From a virus: 64,000 nucleotides of DNA. A program made the position numbers and the translations under genes. This document shows, in pieces, positions 32,621 through 57,178 of the stretch. The stretch is from positions 32,001 to 96,000 of the IMG/VR virus record IMGVR_UViG_3300025728_000008; one strand, given 5' to 3'. The notes beneath the pieces are model-generated. The model worked only from the letters and a program-made list of their open reading frames with translations, was not told where the DNA came from and searched no databases. Positions within the stretch are counted from its first letter, which is position 1; the number at the start of each line of letters is the position of its first letter.

Positions 32621-34954
32621 TCAACCCACTAATTGTTCTGGATATTCTGTTACAAGATTATCAAGTAGTCCATCCCAATCTGGATTACCATCATAAGCTT
32701 TAAGCATTTCTTGTAAGAAACTTCTACGTTCCATATTTGCAAATTTCCCGATACCATAATTTACTGCTTCTGCTTGACCTAATGTTAATAGGAATTTTTG
32801 AGCACGTGACTTGCCTGTGTAGATTAGGTTTGCATTTAATTGATATTTCATAGACTTGTCAATTACAACAATTACTACTTTATATTGAGACCCCTGTGAC
32901 TTATGGATAGTCATAGCCCACGAATGGATTAATGTTGACTTAGCATCTTCAAATTTCAATTTAACTACGATACCTTCAAAGTCTACAATGATATATTTAT
33001 CTTTCTCATTGATAGTTGTAATCTTTCCTGTGTCACCATTAAATACATCTGCTGTACCTTCACCTGTATCTTCTTTATCTAAATCTCCATTAAGGATATC
33101 ATCTAGTGTTAGTTTGTCATCGAATAAGTCATTTACTACAGGTACTTTGTACATATTAACAGTGTTCATAACTGAATCACCTACACGGAAAATTGTTTCA
33201 TCATCTTCTCTACCAAACACAAGTTCGTCTTTCAATGGAGACTCTGGATTAATAATCTCTTGAATTGCTTCATTGATTGCATGAGTTCCAAGTTTTCCTT
33301 TTTTAGTAGGAGATAAAACAATAACATCTTCTGGGTCAAATCGTTTAATAACATTTTTATAATGATGCAGGATTCCATCAAATACATAATCTTGGTCTAC
33401 TAAATGATACACACAATCAGTACCATAAACTTTACGTCCTTCAAGATTATTGTCAAAGAATTTTCTACCATGACGAATATCTGTTGTTCTATCTAGAATG
33501 CCACCATTTTTTTGACGGAATACTTTTTTAAGTTTAGAAACTTTAACACAACCACTATTGATTGCATCATATAAGAAATTCCCTACTCCAACGGATGGTA
33601 ACTGGAAATCATCTCCAACAAATAAGATACGAGTGTTATAGTTTGAGATTGCACCGAAAAGTTTAGCAAGGATGAAAATGTCACACATTGAAGACTCATC
33701 TATAATAATAACATCTTCTTGGATAAAGAAACTTGCATCTCCATCATCATCAAATGAGCCAATCTTTCTATGAATAGTACTAGCTTCTCTTCCAGTATAG
33801 CCTGTCATTACTTTTGATGCCTTTCCAGTTGGCGCAAGTAAAGCAGTTTTATAGTGTAGAGTGTCAATAAGTTCAAGTAGGATTCGTTGAAGCCAGCTTT
33901 TTCCCATGCCCCCTCCGCCAATTAATAACAGTAGGTTGTTCTCATTCCAATCATGGAAAAACTGTCTCTGATTCTCTTCTAGTTCTACTTCTTCTCTTTC
34001 ACAATAGTTATCTAGAAATGCTTCTAGTTCGTCTGTTTTGAATAACTTCTTTGACTGTGTTTTAAATTGGTTCATTTTCATTGCAACAAATTTTTCAGCT
34101 TTATAAACTTTCATAGTTGTATATCTGTCATCTACTCGTACAATGGATTCAGATGGTTCTGCTAGACGTTTTACAATAACCTTTTTAGAGATGTTTAAAA
34201 GCTCAACTGACTTGTTTAAAAGTTGTTTGCGTGTAATCCAAGAATGACCGTTACTATTCTCTCCACCAATAATAAATGCGAAACACGCATCTAGTCGAGG
34301 GTTTGCTTCCATGTCATATCCCATTGCTTTTGCAATAGCATCACATGTTTTGAATCCAACACCTTTAACCTTTGTTAATACATAAGGATTTTTTTCAATC
34401 GTTTCCATTACAAGTTGTGGATTCTTAAATTCTTTAATTAATTTATTTACCATATTATACTTGATGCCATGTTTTCCTAAGAAGACTAATAATTCGCTCA
34501 TTTCTAAATTCATTAAAACTTTTTCTTTCATCTTTTCAAATGTCTTATCTCCAAGACCTTTAACAATACTGTAATCAAATTCATCATTCTGAATCATGCC
34601 AATAACATCTTGCCCTTCATAAACAGCAAAGATGTTTTCTACTTGTGTTTCTGTAAGTATCATTTTGAAGAAGTTTTTTTGTTCATCAACTGATGTTGGT
34701 TTTTCTTGTTTAATGCTTTCTAATATGTATGACCCTGCGTATGTAGATTTATCATCTGGTTTAATTGTAACAGAATATTCTGTTCCTAAATCTAAGTTTG
34801 GTGCGATTCCTTTAAAGCTAATGTTTCCGTAGTTGTTTAATTTAACCTTATCAATATCTTCTGGATTAACATCACAAGCATAAATTCCAAAAGAGCTTTC
34901 TGAATCAAAAAACAATTGTCGTGTAGGTTTTACTTTCACTTCAACTTTTTCCAC
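32621..34954 (-). CDS. recD2: RecD2-like ATP-dependent SF1B DNA helicase
   Basis: HhH motifs, Walker A GGGGMGKS, IIDESSM, VGDDFQLPSVG, TIHKSQGSQY. Confidence 0.92.
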   Translation of the reverse strand: MEKVEVKVKPTRQLFFDSESSFGIYACDVNPEDIDKVKLNNYGNISFKGIAPNLDLGTEYSVTIKPDDKSTYAGSYILESIKQEKPTSVDEQKNFFKMILTETQVENIFAVYEGQDVIGMIQNDEFDYSIVKGLGDKTFEKMKEKVLMNLEMSELLVFLGKHGIKYNMVNKLIKEFKNPQLVMETIEKNPYVLTKVKGVGFKTCDAIAKAMGYDMEANPRLDACFAFIIGGENSNGHSWITRKQLLNKSVELLNISKKVIVKRLAEPSESIVRVDDRYTTMKVYKAEKFVAMKMNQFKTQSKKLFKTDELEAFLDNYCEREEVELEENQRQFFHDWNENNLLLLIGGGGMGKSWLQRILLELIDTLHYKTALLAPTGKASKVMTGYTGREASTIHRKIGSFDDDGDASFFIQEDVIIIDESSMCDIFILAKLFGAISNYNTRILFVGDDFQLPSVGVGNFLYDAINSGCVKVSKLKKVFRQKNGGILDRTTDIRHGRKFFDNNLEGRKVYGTDCVYHLVDQDYVFDGILHHYKNVIKRFDPEDVIVLSPTKKGKLGTHAINEAIQEIINPESPLKDELVFGREDDETIFRVGDSVMNTVNMYKVPVVNDLFDDKLTLDDILNGDLDKEDTGEGTADVFNGDTGKITTINEKDKYIIVDFEGIVVKLKFEDAKSTLIHSWAMTIHKSQGSQYKVVIVVIDKSMKYQLNANLIYTGKSRAQKFLLTLGQAEAVNYGIGKFANMERRSFLQEMLKAYDGNPDWDGLLDNLVTEYPEQLVG

Positions 34955-35182
34955 GTTATCCTCTCCTTTACTTTCATTATCATAATATTATTATATCATT
35001 ATTCTTTATTATTGTCAAGAAAATCTACTGTATACAAACCGTAAATTTCGGTACTAAATTAGTATATCATTATTTTTTACGTTGGTCAATAACTTTTTAA
35101 AATTTTTAGTATCAAAAGAAACTTTTAAACATATTGTGAAGTATAGGCAAAAGCACAAACAAATTTGAAAGGGGTTTTAAAT

Positions 35183-36013
35183 ATGATACAAAGTGGAGTA
35201 ATCGCAATTGATGACGGTGGAAGCAGTACTTGTATTGTAACAAAGCATGTGCAAGAAAAGTTTCCTAGTGTTAAAGGGTTATATGGAGACAGAACATTAG
35301 TGAACACAACTGGTAAGCATGACTTTGTTGTAGAGTATAAAGATAAGAAGTATGTAATGGGAACACTTGCAAAATACGATTGTAAGTATCCATTACAAAT
35401 GCACATCAACACAAAATGTCATATCTTCTTTGACTTATCAGTATTGGTTGCGATTCACAAATATGGATACCCTGTAAACTACCTCATAACTTCTGTACCG
35501 ATTAGTACTCATACAGATGAAGAAAAGACACAACGGATGCATCGACTAGCAGGGGAACACACAATTACAGTTAATGGATATAAAAAGACTTTTACAATAA
35601 TGGATGTAAAGGTTGCACCAGAGACAGCAGTTGCTTATTGGTTAAATGAGCCACATGGCAAAACAAGATTCATTGATTTGGGAAGCAGAACAATTGGATA
35701 CGCTACAACAATCTTTGAAGATGGGATTAACAGATTCATTGATACAGAGAGTGGAACAATTAAAGATAAAGGATTAGAAGCATTAGGTGATGACTATGAC
35801 CAAGAATCATTAGCCGATTATATTTGTGGTAAGTTATCTGCAATATGGAAAGAGAATGATAAAGTATTCATTTTGGGTGGTGGCGCTCATGATGGTCAGT
35901 TAGTTGATAATATTAGAAGATACTTTCCAAAAGCAAGTGTAATGGATGACCCACAAATGGTTAATGCATTATCAATGTATCAGCTTGGTAGATTAGCTTT
36001 TGACATGGAATAG
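35183..36013 (+). CDS. parM: ParM/StbA-like actin segregation ATPase
   Basis: IAIDDGGSST, VAPET, FIDLGSRT, LGGGA, PQMVNA actin-fold motifs. Confidence 0.85.
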   Translation: MIQSGVIAIDDGGSSTCIVTKHVQEKFPSVKGLYGDRTLVNTTGKHDFVVEYKDKKYVMGTLAKYDCKYPLQMHINTKCHIFFDLSVLVAIHKYGYPVNYLITSVPISTHTDEEKTQRMHRLAGEHTITVNGYKKTFTIMDVKVAPETAVAYWLNEPHGKTRFIDLGSRTIGYATTIFEDGINRFIDTESGTIKDKGLEALGDDYDQESLADYICGKLSAIWKENDKVFILGGGAHDGQLVDNIRRYFPKASVMDDPQMVNALSMYQLGRLAFDME

Positions 36014-36024
36014 GAGGGGATAAT

Positions 36025-36309
36025 ATGAGAACAGAAGAACAAGTAGATGCTATGATTGAAGAAATGACTGCAAGAACTAAGGGCAAGTATATTACTCAAG
36101 GTGTTTCATTTAACAAAACTTGCCCTCGCCAGATGGCGTTACTAAAAAAAGCTCTTATGTTATCAGTCTCCTTTAGTGGTTTAGCAAAAGAAGTATTGGC
36201 ATTACGATTTAGTGACTCTACTCCATCATATTCCCATAATACAAGTAATATGTCCACAAATCAAATCAATAAAGCACCCCAATCAAAAAGTGTTGGAAAT
36301 TTCTTATAA
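36025..36309 (+). CDS. Putative ParR-like DNA-binding adaptor
   Basis: Small gene directly after parM, VSFN strand plus helices, disordered C-terminus. Confidence 0.55.
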   Translation: MRTEEQVDAMIEEMTARTKGKYITQGVSFNKTCPRQMALLKKALMLSVSFSGLAKEVLALRFSDSTPSYSHNTSNMSTNQINKAPQSKSVGNFL

Positions 36310-36622
36310 TTTAAAGGAACTTTTAAAGAGTGTAGGCATATATATGATATTAAGAGAAATGTTTAAAAGAAATTTAAAAAATACGAAAAAACAGCAAAAA
36401 AGTAGTAAAAAACGTGAAAAAATCATAAAAAACTACAGTTTTTGTCCAAAAAGTATGATTTTTTTAAAATTTGAAGTACTAAATGAGTGTCTTAATTGTA
36501 ATTTAGTACTTTTTGGACGAAAATGACACCAGTATTATCAAGGGGTTTGGGATTTCGTCAAAATACCTACTTTATATATTAAACGAATTATCCCGAAACC
36601 GAAACCATGCGGAGGTGGATTT

Positions 36623-37087
36623 ATGAAGTTTAAATTAGTTGAAGGTCAAATGAGTTGGGTTAAAGAGGATGCAGTATCACAAATGAATGAACTATTACCA
36701 CTAACTTCTACATCATTAGTTGTAGATATCCCTCAGATTAAGGAATCAATCCACAGATATGTAAGAGAAGGTCTTGGAGATGGAAGGTTTGCAACTGTAG
36801 CCATAGGTGGAACTGGTGTTTTCTGGAAAGCATTTCTTATGTACATTTTCCCGTGGTTTTGCGATATAGCAAAAGTATTTTGCTTAATCAAAATAGCTCA
36901 AGCATTCTATGAAGAAAAGAGAGCAGGTAAAGATGGGTCAAGTGGAATGGGTGCAATCTTCACATATGGAAAATTCTACATCATGTTTTTAATGCTTCCT
37001 TGGTTTGTTGAACTAATTGACCAAATTGGAGGAACTATGTATGACCAAGTAAAAGCTAATCCAACTTTAACATTACCAAAAAGATAA
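36623..37087 (+). CDS. Membrane protein, VirB2/TrbC pilin-like (tentative)
   Basis: Two C-terminal hydrophobic helices joined by a short polar loop; operon context. Confidence 0.45.
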   Translation: MKFKLVEGQMSWVKEDAVSQMNELLPLTSTSLVVDIPQIKESIHRYVREGLGDGRFATVAIGGTGVFWKAFLMYIFPWFCDIAKVFCLIKIAQAFYEEKRAGKDGSSGMGAIFTYGKFYIMFLMLPWFVELIDQIGGTMYDQVKANPTLTLPKR

Positions 37088-37099
37088 AGGAGTGATGTC

Positions 37100-37825
37100 A
37101 TGAGAGTAAAATTAAATGGTAATGACTTCTTCCAAGTATCTAGTCCGTTTGGCTCTATAGATTCCGTCCATAAAACTCCACATTCTGGAATAGACTTGGT
37201 TATGGAAGAAGGTACAAAATTATACAGCCCTGTCGATGGTATTGTCGAAAGGGTTGTAGATTATGGAAATCAAAATATTGGTAAAGGAGTCATAATAAAA
37301 ACTAATACAGGAGAAACTATAATTATGGGGCATATGTCTGATACTTCAACAGCAGAAGTAGGAGAAGAGTTGAGTCGAGGTGAATTTGTAGGCTTATCTG
37401 GAAATACGGGACATAGTACTGGAGCACACCTTCATTTAGGAATGAAAGATGCAAATGGAAATGTCATAAATCCAGAAGGACTTCTGAATGATAATTATAA
37501 GAAGCTTCTCAGTAGCACTGAATCCCTTAACCCAATAGAAGATAAAGGTATGCTCCAATTTTTAAACGATTGGAGGAAAGAAGGATTCTTTAAAGCTGTA
37601 TATGGTAAAGATTTCTTCGAGGTAATGAAGGATGCATTTATAGAATTTTTTAGAGACTTGACTCAGTTTGTAGTAGACAATGCAGATTTATTTTTCTTAA
37701 TCCCTGCAATAATTTTAATGTTTGGAACATTCTTAATAGGGAGAAATAAATATTCAAAATTCATAGTCCCGTTATGGTTTGGGTACTTTGTTTCAAGTAT
37801 TGTGCATAACTTATATATGAAATGA
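37100..37825 (+). CDS. M23 family peptidoglycan endopeptidase with C-terminal TM helices
   Basis: HSGIDL, GHMS, GNTGHSTGAHLH. Confidence 0.9.
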   Translation: MRVKLNGNDFFQVSSPFGSIDSVHKTPHSGIDLVMEEGTKLYSPVDGIVERVVDYGNQNIGKGVIIKTNTGETIIMGHMSDTSTAEVGEELSRGEFVGLSGNTGHSTGAHLHLGMKDANGNVINPEGLLNDNYKKLLSSTESLNPIEDKGMLQFLNDWRKEGFFKAVYGKDFFEVMKDAFIEFFRDLTQFVVDNADLFFLIPAIILMFGTFLIGRNKYSKFIVPLWFGYFVSSIVHNLYMK

Positions 37826-37853
37826 TAAAAAAAAACAAAGGGAGAGATGTTAT

Positions 37854-38006
37854 ATGGAATATATTTTATTAGCAAAAGTTGGTTTCTTTGTAAAGGCTAT
37901 CGTGAACACGGGGTATGTAATTGCAACTAGCTACTTGGCAAAAACTGGATGGCAATATGTAGAGGACTATAAAACTTCTGTTGAGAATGAGAAAGAGGTG
38001 AAGTAA
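37854..38006 (+). CDS. Small hydrophobic protein (50 aa), absent from the ORF track
   Basis: RBS AGGGAG, open frame MEYILLAKVG..., stop abuts next ATG. Confidence 0.6.
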   Translation: MEYILLAKVGFFVKAIVNTGYVIATSYLAKTGWQYVEDYKTSVENEKEVK

Positions 38007-40802
38007 ATGATTGAATATCCACCTATGGTTATACCTCAAAAGAAAAAGAAAACTTTTAACATTAAAGAATTTGTCAATTTATATAGAGAACCTGTTATCA
38101 CTTATCAAATAACACCAAACAATGCACCAGAAGTTATAGAAAGAGAAGGTCGTGGAAGTAGAAGAAGCACTCCTAGATTCATGGACTTTGAAGAAGATAT
38201 CTTTAACAACAAACAACAATCTGATTTACTCTTAAATACAATCAGTGGTTTATTCTCGAAATTCTATGCACCAGAAAGAATACGATTTTCAAAGAATGGT
38301 ATTAAAGTTAAAATGAATGACATTGTAAGTTACAAGGTTATGCTAGTAGATGGAGCAATGAAATTTTATCTGACTGTCCCTAAGAAGTGGGCTAAAAGCT
38401 TCACTGGAGCTATTAAGAGAGATTGGGGTCAAGTGGATATTACAGAGGTTTCTGAAAGAATCGTAGACTTTAATCCGTCAAGGACTAAAGCAATGGATGT
38501 GCATTTAAGACACCATTATGCATTAGCCTTGAAACATGACAAGACACAAAACGATTCTTTCTATTCTTCATTAGCTTCAATTGCTTCAACAATGGATAAA
38601 GGTGAGAAAGTTTTAATTGACTATAACATCGAACCAGTCAACAACAGTTGGAAAGAAAAGGCTGTAAATAAAATTAAAGAATTTAAGAAAGGTAAAGTCC
38701 CAAACAGAGAAGATTCTTTTACAGCAAATGGAATGGCAGGGAAAGTATTCGATATGTTTAATGTCATATTTGATGAATTTATAGACATGATAGAAACGCT
38801 TATGGGAGCAGATAGTAAAAAGGATGACAAAGCTGAACCTTTATTTGACCTAAAATATACTGACCCGAAATTACATGCAAACGCAAAAGGATGTAAAATA
38901 CAGATTAGGGTGTTGGGTGAAGGACAAGAAGAAAAGAAAATGAAGCATATCTTTAAAAATATTGAGACATCTTTTACTCTTCTGAATGGAGATAATAAAT
39001 TTGTTGTGAGTCATATAAAAACAAAGCGTGGCATAAAATCAATTATAAAGGCAGTTGAAGAAGATAAGCCACAATTAGCAAAAACAACTGACATATACTT
39101 TGAGAAGGAGATGAATAATATTTTGAAAATTCCAAGTAAACAAACACTTAAAGAGTTTGATAAGGTCATCACACAGGACAATTTCACTCGAACAGAAATA
39201 AGTGCAGACTTCTTTTCAGATAAAGATGGTGCTATTCCATTAGGATTCACTTTGGAGAAAGAGTCTAGAAAAATTTACTTTGGAGGATACAAAAGAGATT
39301 GGTGGACACCTAAAGGGAGATATGTAAAAGATAAGACACGCTTAGATGACCGTAGCACTGCCACCATGCTCTTTGGCTCTATGGGGAGTGGTAAGACTAC
39401 CATGAGTGAAACACAAGCTCTATACACCTTTGGAGCGCATTTAAAGGATAGGGTAGAATGGAAGAAGCAAAGTAAGTCTGTTGTAGTATTTGATGTAGCA
39501 GATGGAGCAATGATAAATAACATTTATAACCATATTCCAGACTGGTTAAGAGACAGGGTTGTAGTTTTGAATCATAGTAACTTTAAAACACCTATTGCAG
39601 TAAACAATGCAGACCTTCAAGAATACAATGAAGATATAATGCAAGATGAGGATTATGCTTACACATTAGCAGAGATGGAAGCCAAGTTAGTTTTAGAGAT
39701 TTTAAAGTCAGATAAGACGATGGCAATGGACAGATGGTTTACTTCTGCACTGCAAGCAGTACACACTGTTGATAAGGATTATGGATATATTGAAGCCATG
39801 AGAACATTAATTGATGATGATTTTAGAGCTACAGAAATAATTCCTTTCCTATCTGACAGACGTTTGAAATTGGAAATGCAAACATATAACAATATGGCTT
39901 TGGCAGGTGAGACACTTAAAATAATTCAAACTATTGAAAATAGATTTTCGCAGTTGGAACGTGACCAAAAATTATGGGACTGCATCGCACAAAAGCCTTT
40001 ACGAGATGAAGAAGGTAAAGTAAAGTTAAATTTCCGTAGAATGATGGATGGAGATGAAGATGGAGCATATATGATTCTCGTATACATTCCAAAATCTGGA
40101 GTATCACAATTATACAGAAAATTCTTATTTGCACATTACTTTACAAAAATATGGAACGTTGCATTGTCAAGAGAAGTTGGGTTTGCAGGTCGAGAATACA
40201 GACCAGAAACATTAGTTGTCATAGATGAAATACACCAGATAATAGACATACCATTGATTGGACGATTATTTATAGACTTGTTTAAAGAACCACGTAAATA
40301 CTCTCTACGACTTTGGTTAACATTACATGGATGGTCATCATTAGCAAAAGCAGGTCGAGGAATTGAAGGTGACATTAAACAATCTATTATGGATAATGGA
40401 TGTAACCTTGTAATGTTAAAAGGTGGTGGAGAAGCATTTGAAAGTCTAAGAGACTTCTTGAATCCAATGACAATTGCAGACTTTAACAATCTGATGAATA
40501 TGAAATTCTGTGGCATATTTGCAATCCGTTGGAAAGACAAGAACCATGTATTTCAAGCCAAGTTAGGATTACCATTAGGAATGAATCCAGACTTCCAGAG
40601 ATATAGTGAAGTTGATTCTAATTTCTTAACAGCTTATAAGTCTGAATTTGGTCGAGACAAAGATGAAGTACGTGAAGACAATCTGGATAGAAGTTATCAG
40701 ATGATTGAACAGTCGATTCAAAGTGGTTTCTTGGAAGGAGATGATTCAGAGTGGCAAAGTCTAGAAGGACTTGGTATGGCAGAGAAGAAATCCAAAAAGT
40801 GA
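38007..40802 (+). CDS. VirB4/VirD4/HerA-like conjugation-type ATPase
   Basis: Walker A GSMGSGKT, VVVFD, Walker B VVIDEIHQ, EPRKY motif. Confidence 0.75.
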   Translation: MIEYPPMVIPQKKKKTFNIKEFVNLYREPVITYQITPNNAPEVIEREGRGSRRSTPRFMDFEEDIFNNKQQSDLLLNTISGLFSKFYAPERIRFSKNGIKVKMNDIVSYKVMLVDGAMKFYLTVPKKWAKSFTGAIKRDWGQVDITEVSERIVDFNPSRTKAMDVHLRHHYALALKHDKTQNDSFYSSLASIASTMDKGEKVLIDYNIEPVNNSWKEKAVNKIKEFKKGKVPNREDSFTANGMAGKVFDMFNVIFDEFIDMIETLMGADSKKDDKAEPLFDLKYTDPKLHANAKGCKIQIRVLGEGQEEKKMKHIFKNIETSFTLLNGDNKFVVSHIKTKRGIKSIIKAVEEDKPQLAKTTDIYFEKEMNNILKIPSKQTLKEFDKVITQDNFTRTEISADFFSDKDGAIPLGFTLEKESRKIYFGGYKRDWWTPKGRYVKDKTRLDDRSTATMLFGSMGSGKTTMSETQALYTFGAHLKDRVEWKKQSKSVVVFDVADGAMINNIYNHIPDWLRDRVVVLNHSNFKTPIAVNNADLQEYNEDIMQDEDYAYTLAEMEAKLVLEILKSDKTMAMDRWFTSALQAVHTVDKDYGYIEAMRTLIDDDFRATEIIPFLSDRRLKLEMQTYNNMALAGETLKIIQTIENRFSQLERDQKLWDCIAQKPLRDEEGKVKLNFRRMMDGDEDGAYMILVYIPKSGVSQLYRKFLFAHYFTKIWNVALSREVGFAGREYRPETLVVIDEIHQIIDIPLIGRLFIDLFKEPRKYSLRLWLTLHGWSSLAKAGRGIEGDIKQSIMDNGCNLVMLKGGGEAFESLRDFLNPMTIADFNNLMNMKFCGIFAIRWKDKNHVFQAKLGLPLGMNPDFQRYSEVDSNFLTAYKSEFGRDKDEVREDNLDRSYQMIEQSIQSGFLEGDDSEWQSLEGLGMAEKKSKK

Positions 40803-41617
40803 CCTATGACTTTATTCAGTCAAATGTTAAACCAACAATCAAAGATTTGGAGTTGTTGAAGATTGTGAGTGAACGAAAATTGGTTAACAGGTCACATTTG
40901 GAAATCATTACACCTTCATTTAGACACTTAACTAACAACAGAACAAGGCTCATTAATCGAACTATTAGGAAGTTATTTGATTCAATGTGTTTAGATAAGG
41001 TGCATGAGAAACAAGAATTAGGAAAAGGGAATGCCCCTGCTATCCTCGCTCTAGACAGGGGTGGCTCAATCCTTCTTGATATTCCTCATAGACGTAGGAT
41101 ACCACAGCAAAAGATGCTTGTCAATGGGAAGATTGAAATAAGAAGACATGTACCTTCAACATATCGTCATGCTAATGGAGTTAACCAAGTTGAAGTTGAT
41201 ACAATATTGTTTTGTCAAGAAAATGGCTATGAATTTGAATTGTGGGAGCATGAGAAACATGCTTCCTTCACATACAACAATGAGGACATACTAGTTATTC
41301 CAGATGTTTTCTATAGATTGAAAATAAATGAAAAGTCTATAGATTTCTTTTTGGAATTTGACACTGGAACAGAAGACAGATTGAGCAAGAGGAAATTACC
41401 TGTAATTTATAATAAAATCATCAACTATAAAAAATATAAAAGGTCTGGCTTGTGGACTTCACATTCAGAAACTTTCCCAATTATATTATTAGTAACAGAA
41501 GATTCTAAACGTATTCCATATTTTAATGCAAAATGCAAAGAAAATGGGATACAAGGGTTTGGAGTTTATCATGAGAATTATACTAAGTTTATGGAGCATC
41601 TTGCCAAAATGGTTTAG
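40751..41617 (+). CDS. Replication-relaxation (Replic_Relax-like) protein
   Basis: N-terminal wHTH-like region, H....N, IPDVF, FLEFDTGTE motifs; overlaps ATPase gene. Confidence 0.75.
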   Translation: MAKSRRTWYGREEIQKVTYDFIQSNVKPTIKDLELLKIVSERKLVNRSHLEIITPSFRHLTNNRTRLINRTIRKLFDSMCLDKVHEKQELGKGNAPAILALDRGGSILLDIPHRRRIPQQKMLVNGKIEIRRHVPSTYRHANGVNQVEVDTILFCQENGYEFELWEHEKHASFTYNNEDILVIPDVFYRLKINEKSIDFFLEFDTGTEDRLSKRKLPVIYNKIINYKKYKRSGLWTSHSETFPIILLVTEDSKRIPYFNAKCKENGIQGFGVYHENYTKFMEHLAKMV

Positions 41618-41830
41618 ATGCTCTTATTTTGCGTTCTAAGGCTTTTGAATACAAATACTCCAGAATGAATTTTAGAACGCTCTATGAAGCCGAGAGACAG
41701 GTTTAAATTAATTCTAAGATACTCACAGGGACAAAGATTAAAAATAATAATATATTTTGTTGACAAATTCGTCTAAGTATAATATAATATGATTATAGGG
41801 TCACTTAATAAAAATTCGGAGGTCGATATT

Positions 41831-42847
41831 ATGGCAAAATTAGGAAACGTATTTCATTTGAATAGCAGAGAAGAAAATAGAAACCCATATGCAAGTATTC
41901 TTACGTTCTTGAATCGTAAAGGTCAAGACAGTAAAAATACAAAGGATACTTACCAAAGACATATTCAAGATTTCTTTCATTCGATGAGAGGGAAGGAATT
42001 GTCTCAATTACTGGAAGATGACTTAGTATTTACAAAGACACAAACAAAGACATACCAAGTAGCTTTAAAAGAACAATATAAGGGAAGTACAGTTAACAAT
42101 GTTATAAGTGCATTAAAAGAGTGCTATAACCAATTAGAAGATGATGGATTCAATGTAAGTGCATCGTGGTTTAATTTAGAAAGATATGATGAGCATGATT
42201 CAGAAAGTTGGGATGCTTTCACACATCCAGAAGTTATTCAAATTATTAATTTAGTTTCAAGCACAAGAGCAGGTCGTCAAAAGTCATTACTTGTAAGATT
42301 AGCATATGCTACAGCATTTCGTAAAAAGTCATTGTTAGATTTAAAATTCTCTGACATTGTTGAAATTAGTGGAATCTGGTACATCAAAACTTTAGGTAAA
42401 GGTAATAAATGGTCGCACAAAAAATTGTCTGATGACCTATACAATGAGCTTATGAGTTTCAAAGAAGAAGCTAAACGAGACAAAATTTTTACTCTTACAG
42501 TAAAAACAGTAAACAAGATGATGGACTATATCCGTGATAACATTGATTTTGGTGACAGACGAATTGTATTTCATAGCTTCAAAAAAGCAAGTATTGAAGA
42601 AGTAAATGTAATTACAGGTGGAGATTTACGTGCAATGCAAGCGCATGGAGACCATAGCAATCCTGCAACAACAATTGATAATTACCTTGCTAAGAAGAAG
42701 TTAGAAGACCTAGTGGAAGTAGATGTGAATAGTAAAGTGCCAGTTGAAGAATTTGAAAAGCTAACAAGAGATGATTTGCTTGAATTATTAGCAAATGCAG
42801 ACAGAAACATTCAAATACAGTTATTGAGAAAGATGGGTAAAATGTAA
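41831..42847 (+). CDS. Tyrosine recombinase/integrase
   Basis: TAFRK, GKGNK, FHSFKK, GDHS, TTIDNY catalytic set; RBS GGAGGT; sigmaA promoter TTGACA at 41761. Confidence 0.85.
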   Translation: MAKLGNVFHLNSREENRNPYASILTFLNRKGQDSKNTKDTYQRHIQDFFHSMRGKELSQLLEDDLVFTKTQTKTYQVALKEQYKGSTVNNVISALKECYNQLEDDGFNVSASWFNLERYDEHDSESWDAFTHPEVIQIINLVSSTRAGRQKSLLVRLAYATAFRKKSLLDLKFSDIVEISGIWYIKTLGKGNKWSHKKLSDDLYNELMSFKEEAKRDKIFTLTVKTVNKMMDYIRDNIDFGDRRIVFHSFKKASIEEVNVITGGDLRAMQAHGDHSNPATTIDNYLAKKKLEDLVEVDVNSKVPVEEFEKLTRDDLLELLANADRNIQIQLLRKMGKM

Positions 42848-42861
42848 CCCATCTTTTTTTT
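42829..42861 (+). terminator. Rho-independent terminator
   Basis: aagatgggt/acccatctt stem plus T run. Confidence 0.8.
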
Positions 42862-43410: not shown

Positions 43411-43579
43411 TTTTAGCAGGTAGCTTACATCGCCTAATACTATATTATTAATTTATATATAATATATATTAATAGTGTATATATAATAAATAATAATATA
43501 ATTAATAATATATATATTATATATTAAATAAATAAATATAAATAATATAGTATTAGGCGATTTGAGCTACCTGCTAAAA
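43411..43579. repeat. 39-bp inverted repeat enclosing a 91-bp almost pure A/T core, candidate replication origin
   Basis: 43411-43449 vs 43541-43579, 2 mismatches. Confidence 0.85.
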
Positions 43580-43598: not shown

Positions 43599-44432
43599 TC
43601 ATTGAACACTCTTGAATCTGTAAATATTCGGTTCTCCACCTTCATCAAGATTGACTCTCCACTTTCTTCTTTGCACTGATAACCATTTATGTTTCTCTAA
43701 ATTTCGTACATGTTTCTGAAATGTATCTTTTGCGATTCCTGTTTCTGCAATAAGAATAGACTGACTTAAACCACGGGCATTTCCTTGTAATCCTAAACAT
43801 TTGTATTTGAAGAATGCATATAAATATAAATCAACATTGTCAAGGTCTTCTTCATAAATGAATTTCATATATTCCTTTAACGTAATTTTATGTGTGTTAT
43901 TGTAATTGTATAATGTTCCTACATCACCTTCATTCTCGAAAAAGAAGTTAGGTATTTTTACTGTATAGTTTCTGTTCTTGACAATATCTTTGTACCTGCT
44001 ATAATTAATGTCATCAACGTCTAACATGTTGATTGTGATAAACTCTCTGATGGGGTACTCATTAATCTCTTCCTCGGTATACTCGAAAGTTACAGGATAT
44101 TCTTTAGTTGTAGTCGTGAGTCCTAAATTGTCGAGTATACCCTCTTTTTTTATAACCTTGTCAATTGTCTTAGTCGTGGCATCATATCCTAGTATTTGTT
44201 TAATGTCTTTGTTTTGAATATATGTATCGGTTTCTAAATCAACATAATGTGTATATTTGTAAAGGAAAGCTATTGTAACAATATAAGCATAAGCAAATGA
44301 AACCTGCTTCACATTACTTCTCCCTTGTTTGTCTACGATTTGTGATAATGTTTTAAAAATATGATTTGGTATTTGAACAGAAGCATCGCCATATAACTTC
44401 TGAATATTGTTAAAGTTTTCAATCATGTACAT
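43599..44432 (-). CDS. Putative replication initiator / winged-helix DNA-binding protein
   Basis: Two HTH-like segments, C-terminal SQSILIAETGIAKDTFQKHVRNLEKHKWL...PNIY; adjacent to IR-AT element. Confidence 0.55.
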   Translation of the reverse strand: MYMIENFNNIQKLYGDASVQIPNHIFKTLSQIVDKQGRSNVKQVSFAYAYIVTIAFLYKYTHYVDLETDTYIQNKDIKQILGYDATTKTIDKVIKKEGILDNLGLTTTTKEYPVTFEYTEEEINEYPIREFITINMLDVDDINYSRYKDIVKNRNYTVKIPNFFFENEGDVGTLYNYNNTHKITLKEYMKFIYEEDLDNVDLYLYAFFKYKCLGLQGNARGLSQSILIAETGIAKDTFQKHVRNLEKHKWLSVQRRKWRVNLDEGGEPNIYRFKSVQ

Positions 44433-45760: not shown

Positions 45761-46057
45761 TTGAACTTATCAGACCTAATTCATGAAGTCTGGAAAGACG
45801 AACGTGTAAGAAAACTTAAAATCAGAAAAAGTGAAGTAAGAGTAATTGTCAAAGTGGCAGTTGAACATATGGTAAACGGATTAATTAACAATGGAAAGCT
45901 AATGCTTACCAACTTATTTACTCTAGATATTCGAAAAATAAAGGGACGTAAAATTATGAATCTGCAAACAGGCAAGCACATGCATAGTAAAGATTATTAC
46001 AAGGTTGGGTTAGAGCCATCCAAAAAACTAAAAAACGAATTAAAAAAACTAAAATAA
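45761..46057 (+). CDS. HU/IHF-like DNA-binding protein
   Basis: MN.SDLI..V, L.L.NLFTL.IR....R...N.QTG arm, PSKKLK. Confidence 0.8.
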   Translation: MNLSDLIHEVWKDERVRKLKIRKSEVRVIVKVAVEHMVNGLINNGKLMLTNLFTLDIRKIKGRKIMNLQTGKHMHSKDYYKVGLEPSKKLKNELKKLK

Positions 46058-46074: not shown

Positions 46075-47304
46075 ATGAAATTTATCGTTGATACAAATGC
46101 ATTACTTAAAAATCCAGAAGTTGTTTTTGAATTTGATTGTGTGATTCCAAGTCACGTACTTAGAGAAGTAGAACAACTTGAACTGAAACGTAAAAGTGAT
46201 AGAACTTTACAATTTGAGATTCGTAGACTAAAACGATTCCTTGATGAGAATGAAGACAATCCGCATGTATACATTGATTTAAAAGATTACAAGTTTACAT
46301 TAGAAGAAGGTGGACTTGATGACCAATATGTAGATAATATCCTATTACAAGTTGCTGTGGATAACGGATACGGAATGATTACAAATGACCGTCTGTTAAA
46401 AGAGAAATGTAAGTTATACAAGATTCCTGTGCAAAAAATGGATGTAAGTAATTTCGTTGACAATAAAGGATTCCAAGAAGTTGAATTAGCAGAACCATTA
46501 CATAACAGACTTATGGAAAACCCAGAAATCAACCACTTTGATTTAATGGTAAATGAATACGCTATCGTAAATAATGTTAAAGACGGAGAGTTAATTGACA
46601 TTGTAAAATGGACAGGTGAAGTTACAAAGTCTTTACGTGATGCACAAGGAAAGCTAGGAGCTAAGTTTAAAACAAATCAATTCCATTACTTCCAACCACG
46701 TGATGAGCAACAAATCATGGCAATTGATTCAATTAGAGAAAACCAATTAACAATCTTACGTGGTCGTGCAGGAAGTGGTAAATCATTAATTACACTTAAC
46801 ACTGCTTGGAGAATGGTTGAAGAAGAAGGATACAAGCTTGTAATGTTTGTTAACCCAACACCATTACGTGAAGCACAAGAGCTTGGATTCTACAAAGGAG
46901 ACCGAATGGAAAAATTAATGCAGTCAGCAGTTGGGACAATGCTTAAATCTAAATTCGGTGACGAAATGGCTATTGAACAACAAATTCTAGAAAACAAATT
47001 AGACATTCTACCATTCGTAGATTTACGTGGATGGGATTCTGGAGACAGTAAAACGATTGTTTGGATTTTAGAAGCACAGAACCTAACAGCAGATTTAATG
47101 AAGCTTGGATTACAACGTATCACAGAAAGTACTAAAGTAGTAGTAGATGGAGATTACTTTGCACAGGTAGATAAAGATTCATACGCTTCAAACAATGGTA
47201 TGAAACGTATGTCAGAAGTATTCCGTGGAATGGATTTATTCGGAGAAGTTGAATTACAACAAGTACACCGCAGTCGTGTCGCAGATATTGCAGAATTAAT
47301 GTAG
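46075..47304 (+). CDS. phoH: PIN-PhoH (PhoH2-like) protein
   Basis: N-terminal IVDTNAL PIN domain, GRAGSGKS, LGFYKG, LRGWD, EAQN. Confidence 0.9.
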   Translation: MKFIVDTNALLKNPEVVFEFDCVIPSHVLREVEQLELKRKSDRTLQFEIRRLKRFLDENEDNPHVYIDLKDYKFTLEEGGLDDQYVDNILLQVAVDNGYGMITNDRLLKEKCKLYKIPVQKMDVSNFVDNKGFQEVELAEPLHNRLMENPEINHFDLMVNEYAIVNNVKDGELIDIVKWTGEVTKSLRDAQGKLGAKFKTNQFHYFQPRDEQQIMAIDSIRENQLTILRGRAGSGKSLITLNTAWRMVEEEGYKLVMFVNPTPLREAQELGFYKGDRMEKLMQSAVGTMLKSKFGDEMAIEQQILENKLDILPFVDLRGWDSGDSKTIVWILEAQNLTADLMKLGLQRITESTKVVVDGDYFAQVDKDSYASNNGMKRMSEVFRGMDLFGEVELQQVHRSRVADIAELM

Positions 47305-47435: not shown

Positions 47436-47753
47436 ATGGCAAGAAATATAAAGCTTGGTGTTTCGAATGTGGAAGTAATAGGCGGTGACAATCTTGAAGG
47501 AAGATTAAAGAACGTAATGATATCTGGTGTTAGAATGCAGTTAGATGATATCAAGTGTAAAGAAGTCACTGTTATTGCTCGTAAAAGTAATACAGGCTCT
47601 ATTTATATCGGTGGTAAAGATGTTAGTGGAACTAATTTTGGAGTAGAACTGGAAGCAAATGAAAGTTTTACATTTATGATTAGCAACTCAAATCTGATAT
47701 ATATAGATGCATCTGTAAGTGGCGAGGGTGTATCATATGTCACGATTTTCTAG
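47436..47753 (+). CDS. Small beta-rich hypothetical protein
   Basis: RBS GAGGTG; overlaps next gene. Confidence 0.75.
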   Translation: MARNIKLGVSNVEVIGGDNLEGRLKNVMISGVRMQLDDIKCKEVTVIARKSNTGSIYIGGKDVSGTNFGVELEANESFTFMISNSNLIYIDASVSGEGVSYVTIF

Positions 47754-50325
47754 TAATAAGGGTGGTAGTGGTGGTGCTTCTAATCTAAGTGGGTTAAAAG
47801 ACATCATATTTAATCCATTACCAGTTGAAGGAGATGTATTGACTTATGATTCATCTATTTCAAAATGGAAAGCAAAACCACCTAGTAATTCAAATGGTGG
47901 AGTATACTTCTTAGACTTGTCACGTTGGTCTGTAAAGAACAATGGAACAAACGCAGTAGCAACTACTAAAGGTATAAATGATGCTCTTACATGGGCATCT
48001 GGACAAGGTTATATTGAAGTTATTTTACCTAGAGGAACTTATCTTATTGATAAGGATAGTGCGATTGAACCTAAGAGTTTTATGACGTTTAATCTTAACG
48101 GGTCAACATTAAGGAAAGAGACAAATGGATACGAAACATATTCTGTTATTTCATTTAAACGTAATCAAATTTTCTCAAGAGTAACTAATGGAATCATCAA
48201 AGGAGATAAAGACACTCATGATTACACAACAGTTACAGGAACACATGAAGGAGGATTTGGTATTTCTTTAGGAAGCTTTACTCCTATTGCTGATGGTGGA
48301 AATAACATCCGACACATTTGTATTGATAATTTAGATATTTCAGAATGTACAGGAGATGCAATTGTTACAGCTAGTTTATTTGGTCAAATATTCCCAACTC
48401 CTACCAACTTAGCAAACTCATGGGAACAAGGAGCTATCAGTACTGTAGATGGAACTTCTGTTGTAAGTACTTCAAAAATTCGCTCAACATTAAAAATAGA
48501 CATGGCACAACCCGAAATAGTTAAATATGGATACTTTGGATTATATGGTGATGGTTATGGAGGACTAGGTGCAGAAATTTTATGTGACTACTATGATGTA
48601 TTCTTTTATACTTCTGGTGATGTATTTATTTCGTCAGAGTCAAATATTCAGTTCTTTGAAGATATTGATGTTCCTGCAAACGCTAAATGGGCAAAAGTAA
48701 TGTTGCATCAAAGCAATGTCCCAACACCTTCAAAATGTACAATTAACGTAAGAACTGCTTCATTTGGTCAATATATTTACATTGAGAAATGTGACCTTCA
48801 TCATTGTAGAAGACAAGGAATAAGTGTTGGTGGAACAAAAAATCTTTATATTAGAGATAACAATATTCACCACATAAAAGGAACACTTCCAGAAAGTGGA
48901 ATAGATGTTGAGGATGGATACGACATCAACCAATATATCCATATTGAAAATAACAATTTCCATCACAATGACAAATACAACATAATTGTTGTAAATGGTA
49001 AAAACGTATATATTCAAGGAAATACATTATCTAAAACAATGAATATAGGTTATGTTGGATTAGCAGTTAATGGTGGGGCGGATAATGTTATTGTTACACA
49101 TAACACTATTAAACTAAACAAAGTTGTTCTGTCTGGAGAAACGATTTTTGCTAACAACTATGTATATGGAACACAAGTAAACTTGAGTCCTGTTTATGCT
49201 ACACGAAAAATAAAAGTTCTTAATAATATTTTCTACAACATCAAAATGGTAATGGATTCTCCATTTGCTTATGCAGTAGAAGTTGAAAGTTGCAAATTCC
49301 TTAATGATGCTGATAAACTTAATTCTTTAAGTAATACATTACGATTTACACTTGATATTAAACAAGAACCACAAACATTTATTGATTGTATATTTGAAGG
49401 ACAAGATGTAGATTATTTAAGCTATGTTGCTTCAAATGCTACATTTAAACAAGGTTGGGTATTCCAAAATTGTAGATTCAAAAATACAAAAAATCCTAAT
49501 TTCATTGCAGGTAAATATTTAAATTGTGAATTTACTGATTTGACATCTCCAATTAACTTATCTAGAAACAACGATGGAACAAACAGCTTAGAATTAAGAG
49601 GTTGTAAATTTAATTCAACTGACAACAATAACGCAATGTTTACACTTGGAACTATACGTTCATTCGTAATGAAGGATTGTGTAATTGAGAAAACTAGTGG
49701 TTATGTATTTACAATACAAGCTATCTCTAATGAAGTCATTATCAATGACAACATAATTAAAATTACAAATGATGTTCTTCCAAGAGCAGTCATGACTTTT
49801 GAATCTTCATTCACAGGAAACTATATTAGTGTTGATAACAATTTCATCTTAGCAACAAACAGCACTCAAGTAGCTGTAGATAATAAAACAACAAATAATC
49901 CAGTATTTGTAATTAGAAATAACAACTTAAAGAAAACTACAGTCACAAGAAATGGTAAAGAGGTTGTAATTGGAAACATTATTGATGGAGTAATAGACCC
50001 TTATTTCAAATCAGCAAGCGCTCCAACATCATTATATTGGAAAGCAGGTCAAATCATTCAAAATACTTCATTAACATCTGGAGGATATATTGGATGGGTT
50101 TGTACAACAGATGGAACAGCAAACAATCAAGCATGGGTAGCGACTACACCTTACACAGTAAATACTGTAGTTAACGTAAATGGTAAAGTATACAAATGTA
50201 CGGTTGCAGGTACGAGTAGTTCAATTGCTCCAAGTCATACAACTGGAACTGCTTCTGATGGAACTGTAACATGGCAATATGTTGATGTATTAGCTGTGTT
50301 TAAAGCCTATGGATTAATTCAATAA
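47737..50325 (+). CDS. Right-handed parallel beta-helix (pectate-lyase-like) protein with C-terminal carbohydrate-binding module
   Basis: INDAL...VILPRGTYLI, repeated N/C-ladder turns, RRQGISV, GIDVE; C-terminal AW...Y..N.VV..NGKVYKC..AGTS (CBM5/12-like). Confidence 0.8.
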   Translation: MSRFSSNKGGSGGASNLSGLKDIIFNPLPVEGDVLTYDSSISKWKAKPPSNSNGGVYFLDLSRWSVKNNGTNAVATTKGINDALTWASGQGYIEVILPRGTYLIDKDSAIEPKSFMTFNLNGSTLRKETNGYETYSVISFKRNQIFSRVTNGIIKGDKDTHDYTTVTGTHEGGFGISLGSFTPIADGGNNIRHICIDNLDISECTGDAIVTASLFGQIFPTPTNLANSWEQGAISTVDGTSVVSTSKIRSTLKIDMAQPEIVKYGYFGLYGDGYGGLGAEILCDYYDVFFYTSGDVFISSESNIQFFEDIDVPANAKWAKVMLHQSNVPTPSKCTINVRTASFGQYIYIEKCDLHHCRRQGISVGGTKNLYIRDNNIHHIKGTLPESGIDVEDGYDINQYIHIENNNFHHNDKYNIIVVNGKNVYIQGNTLSKTMNIGYVGLAVNGGADNVIVTHNTIKLNKVVLSGETIFANNYVYGTQVNLSPVYATRKIKVLNNIFYNIKMVMDSPFAYAVEVESCKFLNDADKLNSLSNTLRFTLDIKQEPQTFIDCIFEGQDVDYLSYVASNATFKQGWVFQNCRFKNTKNPNFIAGKYLNCEFTDLTSPINLSRNNDGTNSLELRGCKFNSTDNNNAMFTLGTIRSFVMKDCVIEKTSGYVFTIQAISNEVIINDNIIKITNDVLPRAVMTFESSFTGNYISVDNNFILATNSTQVAVDNKTTNNPVFVIRNNNLKKTTVTRNGKEVVIGNIIDGVIDPYFKSASAPTSLYWKAGQIIQNTSLTSGGYIGWVCTTDGTANNQAWVATTPYTVNTVVNVNGKVYKCTVAGTSSSIAPSHTTGTASDGTVTWQYVDVLAVFKAYGLIQ

Positions 50326-54588: not shown

Positions 54589-55497
54589 TTGAGTACTAGG
54601 AAGAAAAAAGAGCCAACGCCTAAAAAGGAATGTTCATCTTGTGGTAATAACAAGGCAGTAACATATTTCTTTAAGGTTGATAGTCCACTGTTTCCAGATG
54701 GAAGAATTAATACGTGTCGTGATTGTGTTCGTAAACAAGTTGATATAAATGACTTAGAACAAGTAATTACATTCTTACGACAAATTGATAAACCTTTTAA
54801 TCAGAAGTATTGGGATGAAGCATTAAAATCTAAGAATCATCCACTAGGAGAATATGTTCGTAAAATAAACTCTCTTAATCAAGTAAAAGATAAAAGCTTT
54901 GATGATAGTCCTGCTGTTGGTATCGGTACTAGTCTTGATATCCAAGCTTCACAAGCCCTTGATACAATTGAAAGGGAAGATGGAGAGATTATTGAGTATT
55001 CTGATTCACTAGTTTCACGTTGGGGAATCGGATACCAAAAGCATGAATACTTACGATTAGAGAAGTATTACCAAGACATGATGATGAGTTATGAAATTAA
55101 AGATATCAACCATCGTCAAATGTTAAAGAATTTAGCAAAATTATCTGTAGAATTAGATAATGCATTAGCAAGAAAAGATTTTACACAGTATAGTAAGATT
55201 AATAAAGAATATGACATTATGTTGAAGTCTTCTGGTTTCAGACCAGTAGATAAAAAGAGTGGTTCAGAAGCTAGTGGTATGATGTCATTCTCTCAAGTTT
55301 GGGCAGAAATTGAAAAAGAAGGATTTGTTCCACCTAAACTTATTGACTTTAAAAAAGATGACATTGATTACATGTTAATGTATTACCAACAATTCGTACA
55401 GAGATTAGTTGACAAGCCTGTTACTGTTGAGCCAGATACAGAGTGGCGAGATGAGGTTATAGACTATGAATCAGAATCAGAAGAAGAAGAAAACTAA
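54589..55497 (+). CDS. Putative terminase small subunit / Zn-finger packaging protein
   Basis: CxxC...CxxC N-terminus; overlaps terL start. Confidence 0.6.
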   Translation: MSTRKKKEPTPKKECSSCGNNKAVTYFFKVDSPLFPDGRINTCRDCVRKQVDINDLEQVITFLRQIDKPFNQKYWDEALKSKNHPLGEYVRKINSLNQVKDKSFDDSPAVGIGTSLDIQASQALDTIEREDGEIIEYSDSLVSRWGIGYQKHEYLRLEKYYQDMMMSYEIKDINHRQMLKNLAKLSVELDNALARKDFTQYSKINKEYDIMLKSSGFRPVDKKSGSEASGMMSFSQVWAEIEKEGFVPPKLIDFKKDDIDYMLMYYQQFVQRLVDKPVTVEPDTEWRDEVIDYESESEEEEN

Positions 55498-57166: not shown

Positions 57167-57178
57167 TAGGAGGTGTAA

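Follow-up and report, generated by a model that had tools for sequence, protein, structure and literature searches.

Pathria et al. (2012) described orf200-207 of the lytic phage 0305phi8-36 as a 'DNA translocation operon', with a CloDF13 MobC-like relaxase, a VirD4/TraG-like coupling ATPase, a VirB6-like membrane protein and an MreB-like protein among its parts (PMC3357382). Their HHpred searches matched orf200 to the CloDF13 MobC relaxase (4.4e-22) and orf201 to TraG; they noted the SPO1 homologues gp27.3, gp27.4 and gp27.9, and proposed that the phage genome spreads virion-free between touching cells in biofilms (PMC3357382). Here, we analysed a related five-gene cluster at positions 36623-41617 of a 64,000-nucleotide (nt) stretch of viral DNA, namely positions 32,001 to 96,000 of IMG/VR record IMGVR_UViG_3300025728_000008. 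This whole stretch is called the window, and coordinates refer to it unless another locus is named.

The same genes have also been reported from the temperate Bacillus siphophages of the Tsamsa/Thrax/Izhevsk group, the 'Tyroviruses' (~160-170 kb; PMC9703825). The 2022 Tyrovirus paper listed gp11-18, including ParM, a ParG-like protein, a 'type IV secretion system protein' and a 'replication-relaxation protein', as plasmid-like genes and took them to support a plasmid prophage (PMC9703825); the Izhevsk and Kirov papers give the same reading more briefly (PMC7685451, PMC10454425). All three papers treat the genes as plasmid-prophage maintenance derived from a conjugative plasmid and leave the membrane proteins, the peptidase and the homology to virulent phages without comment (PMC9703825, PMC7685451, PMC10454425). 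Both the observation and the virion-independent translocation reading are already in print, and the system is a known one. In the literature, we found no functional test of the module beyond the 2012 deletion of orf200-207.

The carrier is a 159,412-bp virus record (96% complete) with terminase large subunit and portal genes at 55466-58678 of the window, which mark a tailed phage; by sequence comparison, it is a Tsamsa-like (Tyrovirus) Bacillus siphophage of ~159 kb. Among sequencing runs, one of rhizosphere DNA contained 96% of the sampled words and is probably the source sample; no RNA run with the sequence was listed. The cluster DNA was 74.6-89.6% identical to Thrax1-5, Tsamsa, Izhevsk, Kirov and PBC2, with Thrax5 and C30-3 as the best matches; the figure for the Tsamsa/Thrax/Izhevsk group was 82-89%. 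Compared with gp11-gp18 of these phages (Thrax1-5, Tsamsa, Izhevsk, Kirov and PBC2), the genes and their order are the same and the ATPase is up to 96% identical; there is essentially no difference, and the window adds another member to the group. We read the cluster, with moderate confidence, as the Tyrovirus copy of the phage 'DNA translocation operon', a module derived from a type IV secretion system (T4SS) that would process and translocate phage DNA without a virion. The derivation of its gene content from conjugation or type IV secretion is supported by the comparisons below. The cluster and its immediate flanks contain the following features (aa, amino acids):

35184-36013, + strand: ParM-type actin-like protein (ALP); PF17989 ALP_N, 51.4 bits; phrog_691, partition protein, 7.7e-50
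36025-36309, + strand: 94-aa candidate ParR/ParG-like adaptor; phrog_32184, 4.9e-41
36376-36432, no strand: six phased A6 tracts at 10-11 bp spacing, read in the sequence
36439-36455 and 36507-36523: 17-nt inverted repeats, 94% complementary, 51 nt apart
36623-37087, + strand: 154-aa two-helix membrane protein; phrog_30989, 9e-71
37100-37825, + strand: M23 metallopeptidase, 241 aa; PF01551, 68.4 bits (cut-off 28.7); phrog_33207, 4e-145
37854-38006, + strand: 50-aa hydrophobic peptide; phrog_31209, 8e-33; its stop codon abuts the ATPase start codon
38007-40802, + strand: soluble ATPase, 931 aa; AlphaFold2 model with pLDDT 86; Walker motifs
40751-41617, + strand: Replic_Relax protein (MOBC-type relaxase family), 288 aa, GTG start; PF13814, 50.3 bits (cut-off 25.3); phrog_9381, 7.6e-84
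41789-42847, + strand: tyrosine recombinase, Xer-like; PF00589 and PF02899

The operon consists of the five + strand open reading frames (ORFs) at 36623-41617, with intergenic gaps of 12, 28 and 0 nt and, at the last junction, an overlap of 52 nt. A Shine-Dalgarno-like sequence precedes each ORF, a scan found no terminator-like site within the cluster, and PHROGs matched every cluster ORF, the 50-aa peptide included, to a phage protein family. The first-pass annotation, made from the sequence alone, had described this co-oriented run between parMR and a tyrosine recombinase. All five ORFs were found on the + strand at the coordinates above, with ALP_N (PF17989) upstream and PF00589/PF02899 downstream. 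Its assignments of the single proteins also held. The two-helix protein and the 50-aa peptide have hydrophobic segments and are both conserved, and the M23 peptidase combines the PF01551 match with a C-terminal membrane hairpin. The VirB4/VirD4-like ATPase belongs, by structure prediction and Foldseek, to the VirB4/VirD4/HerA class with a VirB4-type N-domain, and the overlapping Replic_Relax-like protein scores above the curated PF13814 cut-off.

The Replic_Relax protein, the ATPase and their relatives

In Pfam, the CONJscan MobC relaxase class corresponds to PF13814 (PMC5357655, Table 1), which matched at 51 bits on the genome record. The Replic_Relax gene overlaps the ATPase gene by 52 nt and is translationally coupled to this gene for a soluble, hexameric-motor-class ATPase. 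Its long GTG start is backed by N-terminal conservation with SPO1 gp27.3 (27% identity, E 7e-30) and 0305phi8-36 ORF200, and its PHROG label is 'replication initiation by nicking'. A sequence search of the PDB found no solved relative. H140, D185, E202, D204, K222 and Y226 were invariant in seven diverse homologues from Tyrovirus-like phages, SPO1 and 0305phi8-36, a pattern that fits an active enzyme under selection. Restriction-endonuclease-like chemistry has been described for the family, and the conserved acidic residues and lysine of the phage protein are consistent with it.

The ATPase contains no hydrophobic segment (maximum 19-residue Kyte-Doolittle average 1.22) and so has no N-terminal transmembrane anchor, which is a feature of type IV coupling proteins (T4CPs). 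Its motifs are a Walker A GSGKT (G462 and K463 invariant), a Walker B pair D740/E741 and R763/K764. An exhaustive search recovered 168 cluster representatives of the family with 750-950 aa, and among the 65 that were aligned the Walker A lysine, the Walker B Asp-Glu and the Arg-Lys motif were invariant or nearly so. A single-sequence search of the PDB returned nothing useful, only 2 of 48 relatives gave a weak AAA_10 match, and hhalign aligned the family to canonical AAA_10 VirB4 over the Walker B region only (E 0.014).

Structural comparison was more specific. The C-domain (~390-880), which carries an all-helical insert at ~535-660, matched TrwB (Z 22.9), VirB4 4ag5 (22.7), DndH-C (21.6) and HerA (20.5), with FtsK at 16-17; from the modelled motor domain alone, the ATPase can be assigned no more closely than to the HerA/FtsK/VirB4/VirD4 class. 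A separate model of the first 395 residues (pLDDT 85), searched against structural representatives, proved decisive. The results showed that the N-domain (~25-386) best matches residues 34-424 of TrwK/VirB4 (Z 15.6, rmsd 3.6, 247 residues), with the next match at Z 8.8 and the remainder below 7; the top 11 Foldseek hits were all TrwK. In the ESM Atlas, the N-domain (TM-score 0.66-0.72) corresponds to PF26449 DUF8128, fused to DUF87, TrwB_AAD_bind, TraG-D_C or T4SS-DNA_transf motors. Judged from these models, the ATPase is soluble, has VirB4 architecture and belongs to an uncharacterised class of T4SS-type ATPases with DUF8128; a classical membrane-anchored coupling protein it is not.

The ATPase family is carried by the virulent phages SPO1 (gp27.4), CampHawk, Shanette, CP-51 and JL and by the jumbo phage 0305phi8-36 (ORF201). 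The window ATPase is 23% identical to SPO1 gp27.4 (~1e-36), and the family profile hit gp27.4 at 3e-223 and ORF201 at 4.9e-116. The shared order of ALP, small protein, membrane proteins, tiny peptide, ATPase and Replic_Relax was found in 10 IMG/VR loci and one Halobacillus contig, and the order from ALP to relaxase also in virulent SPO1 (gp27.9-27.3) and virulent 0305phi8-36 (ORF207-200). In both virulent phages, the Replic_Relax homologue overlaps the ATPase gene, and small hydrophobic ORFs occupy the space from the ALP gene to the ATPase gene. Conservation of the gene order extends over three unrelated large Bacillus phage lineages, two of them strictly virulent. The Tyrovirus-like B. subtilis phages FADO and vB_BsuS_PJN02 also have the complete module. 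A Replic_Relax relative, at least the relaxase of the operon, occurs also in phage G, and two near-identical records of 162-166 kb with the ATPase family are filed as Bacillus plasmids. The pairing of ATPase and Replic_Relax, which the first-pass annotation had said occurs in Bacillus phages and plasmids, is recurrent in Bacillus phages; plasmids of spore-forming Bacillota carry ATPase relatives too, of which two adjoin a Replic_Relax gene.

On clostridial plasmids, ATPase relatives lie directly after a TrbC/VirB2 gene (PF04956, 28.5 bits). One such relative, on Clostridium botulinum plasmid pCLK (108421-111221; ~22% identity), overlaps the TrbC/VirB2 pilin gene by 4 nt. The large clostridial plasmids of the pCLK kind are typed MPF_T yet 'non-mobilizable' in PLSDB, and no relaxase is annotated nearby.

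Three bacterial loci (L032, L033 and L034) were drawn from a sample of 401 Bacillota genomes. L032 (2459-10706) contains an ATPase relative, Replic_Relax (36.6 bits), a protein with two transmembrane segments, TcpC (PF12642) and a separate AAA_10 VirB4 (1e-115). By gene content, the ATPase relative there stands where a canonical Gram-positive conjugation system has its coupling protein. Since it coexists with a true AAA_10 VirB4 in one conjugative element, it would be functionally coupling-protein-like, unlike a channel ATPase. The relative in L033 (5181-7679) has three N-terminal membrane segments and passes TrwB_AAD_bind PF10412 (27.6 vs 20.5) as well as TraG-D_C PF12696; downstream of it are Replic_Relax (54.9 bits), an SSB-like ORF, judged by its N-terminal sequence only, and an SF1 helicase. 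Together, L032 and L033 suggest that the MOBC relaxases of Bacillota have DUF8128 ATPases as their coupling proteins. This re-reading of the ATPase, with a VirB4-type N-domain and relatives in the coupling-protein slot beside MOBC relaxases, sharpens the model of the operon and points to an uncharacterised DUF8128-type class of T4SS ATPases.

Membrane proteins, partition genes and surroundings

The hydrophobicity of the 154-aa protein peaks at residues 71 and 111, and a charged loop with the consensus YEEKRGGRDGGTG lies between the two helices. It has 47 homologues, and all 21 invariant alignment positions fall within the helix-loop-helix part. In topology, the protein resembles a VirB2-type pilin, which we treat as a lead only. 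Its language-model neighbours with a Pfam name were mostly TrbC, T4SS_pilin, DUF4134 and DUF2976, and these scores (0.81-0.83) are likewise no more than a lead. Alignment of the family by hhalign to 0305phi8-36 ORF204, pCLK TrbC and SPO1 gp29.1 found no similarity, and a Pfam scan of all 29 members of the family found no pilin family.

The M23 protein comprises a catalytic domain (~27-125) and a conserved C-terminal region with a membrane hairpin (~150-241). Its sequence includes both the HxxxD and the HxH metal-binding motif, and the peptidase looks active. Hydrophobicity peaks at residue 195, and a second C-terminal hydrophobic segment (~221-239) was read from the sequence. A homologue on a 127-kb IMG/VR contig (L012, 3100-3516) has no M23 catalytic domain and keeps the C-terminal region with two membrane helices, which suggests that the membrane protein is the conserved part and the peptidase an accessory to it. 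An ESM Atlas search with the C-terminal part returned no named lead. In the bacterial locus L034, an ALP, a small protein and a protein with two transmembrane segments accompany an M23 protein with N-terminal membrane helices, and the ATPase gene follows directly. The domain order of this peptidase is opposite to that in the window, so the association of peptidase and ATPase apparently arose twice.

The 50-aa peptide has its hydrophobicity peak at residue 4. It is conserved at this position in 8 loci, with a mean column identity of 62% and 14 invariant residues; this conservation indicates that it is a real gene. Small membrane ORFs before the ATPase gene are also present in SPO1 (gp27.5-27.7), 0305phi8-36 (ORF202) and the bacterial loci L030, L031 and L034. 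By position, the peptide may correspond to VirB3. A complex prediction of the ATPase N-domain with the peptide (score 0.00, the peptide's own fold being uncertain) speaks neither for nor against an interaction.

Upstream of the operon, the ALP gene most likely starts at ATG 35184, which has a ribosome-binding site ahead of it, rather than at the listed TTG 35165. ALP homologues hold the matching position in SPO1 (gp27.9) and 0305phi8-36 (ORF207). The 94-aa candidate adaptor had no Pfam match; an ORF of 90-107 aa follows parM in most parM-bearing related loci, and the Thrax homologue has been called ParG-like, with a ribbon-helix-helix motif (PMC9703825). The 313 bp that separate the parR-like gene from the 154-aa gene contain the phased A-tracts and the inverted repeats, a candidate parC and/or oriT. 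Thrax5 has an insertion of an HNH endonuclease gene there.

A consensus sigma-A scan of the + strand found no strong promoter before parM or before 36623. Upstream of parM (35097-35137) lies a promoter-like sequence of GTATCA, 15 nt, CATAT(T/G) and then AAGTATAGGC; this three-part motif is complete in six of eight aligned Tyrovirus-like loci. Perfect sigma-A promoters were found on the divergent RecD2-like helicase gene and on the recombinase gene. The latter promoter (41760-41788) agrees with the consensus at 12 of 12 positions, and the scan placed a terminator-like site at 42826-42859. An ORF of 338-341 aa stands at the recombinase position in at least 6 related loci, and the tyrosine recombinase is probably a conserved neighbour outside the operon. 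Other genes nearby are:

32621-34954, - strand: RecD2-like SF1 helicase, divergent from parM
43599-44432, - strand: 277-aa protein; phrog_19047 (transcriptional regulator); annotated 'replication initiator' in Thrax5
45761-46057, + strand: HU-like protein
46075-47304, + strand: PIN-PhoH (YlaK-type) ribonuclease
47719-50325, + strand: beta-helix tail-spike-like protein, 868 aa, with a CBM5/12 module

A 72-nt inverted repeat (79% complementary) with a near-pure A/T core lies at 43411-43579, beside the gene at 43599-44432, and is a candidate replication origin. An ATPase 93% identical to that of the window was found on a 166.5-kb contig filed in NCBI as Klebsiella pneumoniae, which is almost certainly a mislabelled or contaminant Bacillus phage.

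Proposed mechanism and rival explanations

If the cluster is a DNA translocation operon, the Replic_Relax protein would recognise and cut a site on the phage DNA, and the ATPase, docked on the small membrane proteins, would act as its coupling and translocation motor. ParM filaments would carry the DNA to the membrane site, the M23 domain would open the peptidoglycan locally, and the DNA would cross the membrane without a virion. The breadth of the module across Tyroviruses, SPO1-like Herelleviridae and 0305phi8-36, and of at least the relaxase in phage G, implies a selected function. Because the module has no VirB6, VirB8, canonical (AAA_10) VirB4 or adhesins, a self-sufficient mating apparatus is argued against; our guess is that the DNA passes through a septum that already exists, into either the sister cell of a chain or the forespore, and that free-cell mating is less likely.

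Host range bears on this point. Endospore-forming genera account for every record concerned: an ATPase relative was found in 71 phage and 26 plasmid records, and a Replic_Relax relative in 62 phage records. SPO1 genomes have been found entrapped in spores, and ParM gp27.9 was mentioned in that context (PMC12991052, 2026). A specific version, which we consider distinctly improbable, is trans-septal delivery during sporulation, in which ParM and the relaxase/ATPase pair would place the genome in the forespore or sister cell while the M23 domain thins the septal wall. If true, it would explain why virulent and temperate phages of endospore formers both retain the module and why it is dispensable in plaques, and the module would be the first viral machinery dedicated to the formation of 'virospores'.

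Several results weigh against DNA translocation by the cluster. Deletion of orf200-207 in 0305phi8-36, the only experiment on a homologous operon, gave no growth phenotype in plaques (PMC3357382), and the region is absent from some Tyroviruses (PMC9703825). Measured against the complete Gram-positive T4SSs of Tcp, ICEBs1 and Tn916, Pfam found no AAA_10 and no TcpC/VirB8-like protein in the cluster. No cluster protein has more than two hydrophobic segments, and no polytopic VirB6-like protein was found among them; no second T4CP or FtsK (PF02534, PF01580) was found in the 96%-complete phage record. The 'minimal conjugation-like operon' of the first-pass annotation was therefore right as to gene content, which is T4SS- or conjugation-derived, and overstated as to completeness, with AAA_10 VirB4, VirB8, VirB6 and a separate coupling protein all missing. 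The window ATPase had no Pfam or NCBIfam match even at E 10, PF03135, PF12846 and PF02534 included, and its motor is as near to HerA and DndH as to T4SS ATPases, within ~2 Z units. The M23 domain is without a signal peptide and sits on the N-terminal side of the membrane hairpin, which makes its export no more than putative, and the pilin-like and VirB3-like roles are argued from topology and position only. The spore-former pattern may merely reflect host phylogeny. SpoIVA was present in 6 of 6 Bacillota genomes with a match over both ATPase domains, but also in 323 of the 401 sampled genomes, which leaves this comparison without power.

The published alternative is plasmid-prophage upkeep (PMC7685451, PMC10454425, PMC9703825). 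As the only role, with ParM/ParR partitioning the circular prophage, Replic_Relax starting or resolving replication through nicking, the ATPase as a helper in replication or segregation and the Xer-like recombinase resolving dimers, it appears unlikely, although it would account for the ParM-type ALP with its adjacent small protein, the neighbouring tyrosine recombinase, the nicking label in PHROGs, the temperate lifestyle of the carriers and the two records filed as plasmids. Strictly virulent phages, namely the SPO1-like ones and 0305phi8-36, also carry the ALP-to-relaxase module (PMC3357382), which argues against upkeep as the sole role; partition and replication need neither membrane peptides nor a wall peptidase. 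The ATPase has the predicted fold of a T4SS translocase and its relatives have the genomic context of one, and the 'replication initiator' homologue beside the AT-rich inverted repeat is a separate gene. In a different account, the phage would be mobilisable and not self-transmissible, its MOBC relaxase and own coupling ATPase using the channel of a co-resident conjugative plasmid or integrative and conjugative element. MOBC relaxases are typically paired with a dedicated coupling protein, as in CloDF13 MobB/MobC. The coupling-protein/relaxase pair of L032, in an element with its own AAA_10 VirB4 and TcpC, the passing of T4CP Pfam models by the L033 relative and the lack of VirB6, VirB8 and AAA_10 in the phage cluster all fit such a module. 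We nevertheless rate it as rather doubtful: a pilin-like protein, a peptidase and small membrane proteins would be superfluous for a purely mobilisable element, the ATPase lacks a membrane anchor and its N-domain is of VirB4 type, moving 130-220 kb through a foreign channel is demanding, and the profit for a fast-lysing virulent phage is hard to see. Trans-septal transfer is weakly favoured over helper-channel mobilisation because the cluster has its own wall hydrolase and membrane proteins and its hosts are all endospore formers.

It is also conceivable, though highly unlikely in our estimate, that the cluster exports no DNA, and that a HerA/DndH-like ATPase and a nuclease act in conflict between elements (defence, counter-defence or superinfection exclusion) or in DNA import, as in archaeal Ced and Helicobacter pylori ComB. 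The motor is nearly as similar to the DndH-C, HerA, TdpA and Sir2-HerA defence ATPases as to TrwB/VirB4, a profile search of PDB sequences ranked HerA (1.7e-6) and DptH above T4SS proteins, and the operon is dispensable for laboratory growth (PMC3357382). On the other side, the N-domain matches VirB4 specifically rather than the HAS barrel of HerA, the partner belongs to the MOBC family and is not NurA, Sir2 or DUF4297, and the relatives sit in conjugation contexts. If DNA translocation is the function, capsid-free movement of phage DNA would blur the boundary between phages and conjugative elements, and movement into neighbours, spores or a helper channel would matter for the persistence of B. 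cereus-group phages in soil.

Comparison with known systems

Compared with VirB4 (TrwK of R388 and T. pseudethanolicus VirB4), the two-domain architecture was recovered structurally in the phage ATPase, and the ATPase shares a like helical insert and Walker/arginine motifs with TrwB and VirB4. However, it is only 7-15% identical in sequence to VirB4 and TrwB and matches none of PF03135, PF12846 and PF02534. The 50-aa peptide sits in the VirB3 position, and VirB6 and VirB8 were not detected in the cluster. As for a T4CP, the ATPase gene overlaps the putative cognate relaxase gene in the window, SPO1 and 0305phi8-36, and the two genes are adjacent in L032 and L033. Where a complete Gram-positive T4SS has a full set of channel proteins, the phage cluster has only the hydrolase (M23) and one ATPase.

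With Streptomyces TraB and with SpoIIIE/FtsK, the cluster would share only the concept, a hexameric-class motor acting across an existing septum without a pilus or adhesin. The motors belong to the same superfamily, but the phage record has no FtsK_SpoIIIE domain (PF01580) and the ATPase no membrane-spanning N-terminus. Unlike these septal single-motor systems, the cluster includes a relaxase, which suggests processed rather than intact double-stranded DNA. Of the parts of a type II ParMRC system, the ALP is present, the small adjacent protein is a candidate adaptor and the phased A-tracts are a candidate centromere.

As in CloDF13 MobC/MobB and pAD1 TraX, the phage relaxase is encoded beside a T4CP/VirB4-class ATPase. 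In contrast to CloDF13 MobC/MobB, the phage has only candidate oriT repeats, the ATPase has a VirB4-like N-domain and no membrane anchor, and the carrier is a 159-kb phage.

The closest virulent counterparts remain the operons of 0305phi8-36 and SPO1. Pathria et al. assigned the ATPase to the coupling proteins of VirD4/TraG type, whereas a VirB4-type N-domain was found here. The Tyrovirus version is without the 286-aa polytopic ORF203 of 0305phi8-36, called VirB6-like by Pathria et al., and has M23 fused to a membrane hairpin; no M23 domain was found in ORF203/204 or in the scanned SPO1 ORFs. It also differs in adjoining a tyrosine recombinase and in residing in a temperate siphovirus. With both operons, the window shares the relaxase, ATPase and actin-like homologues, the gene order and the tiny peptide before the ATPase.

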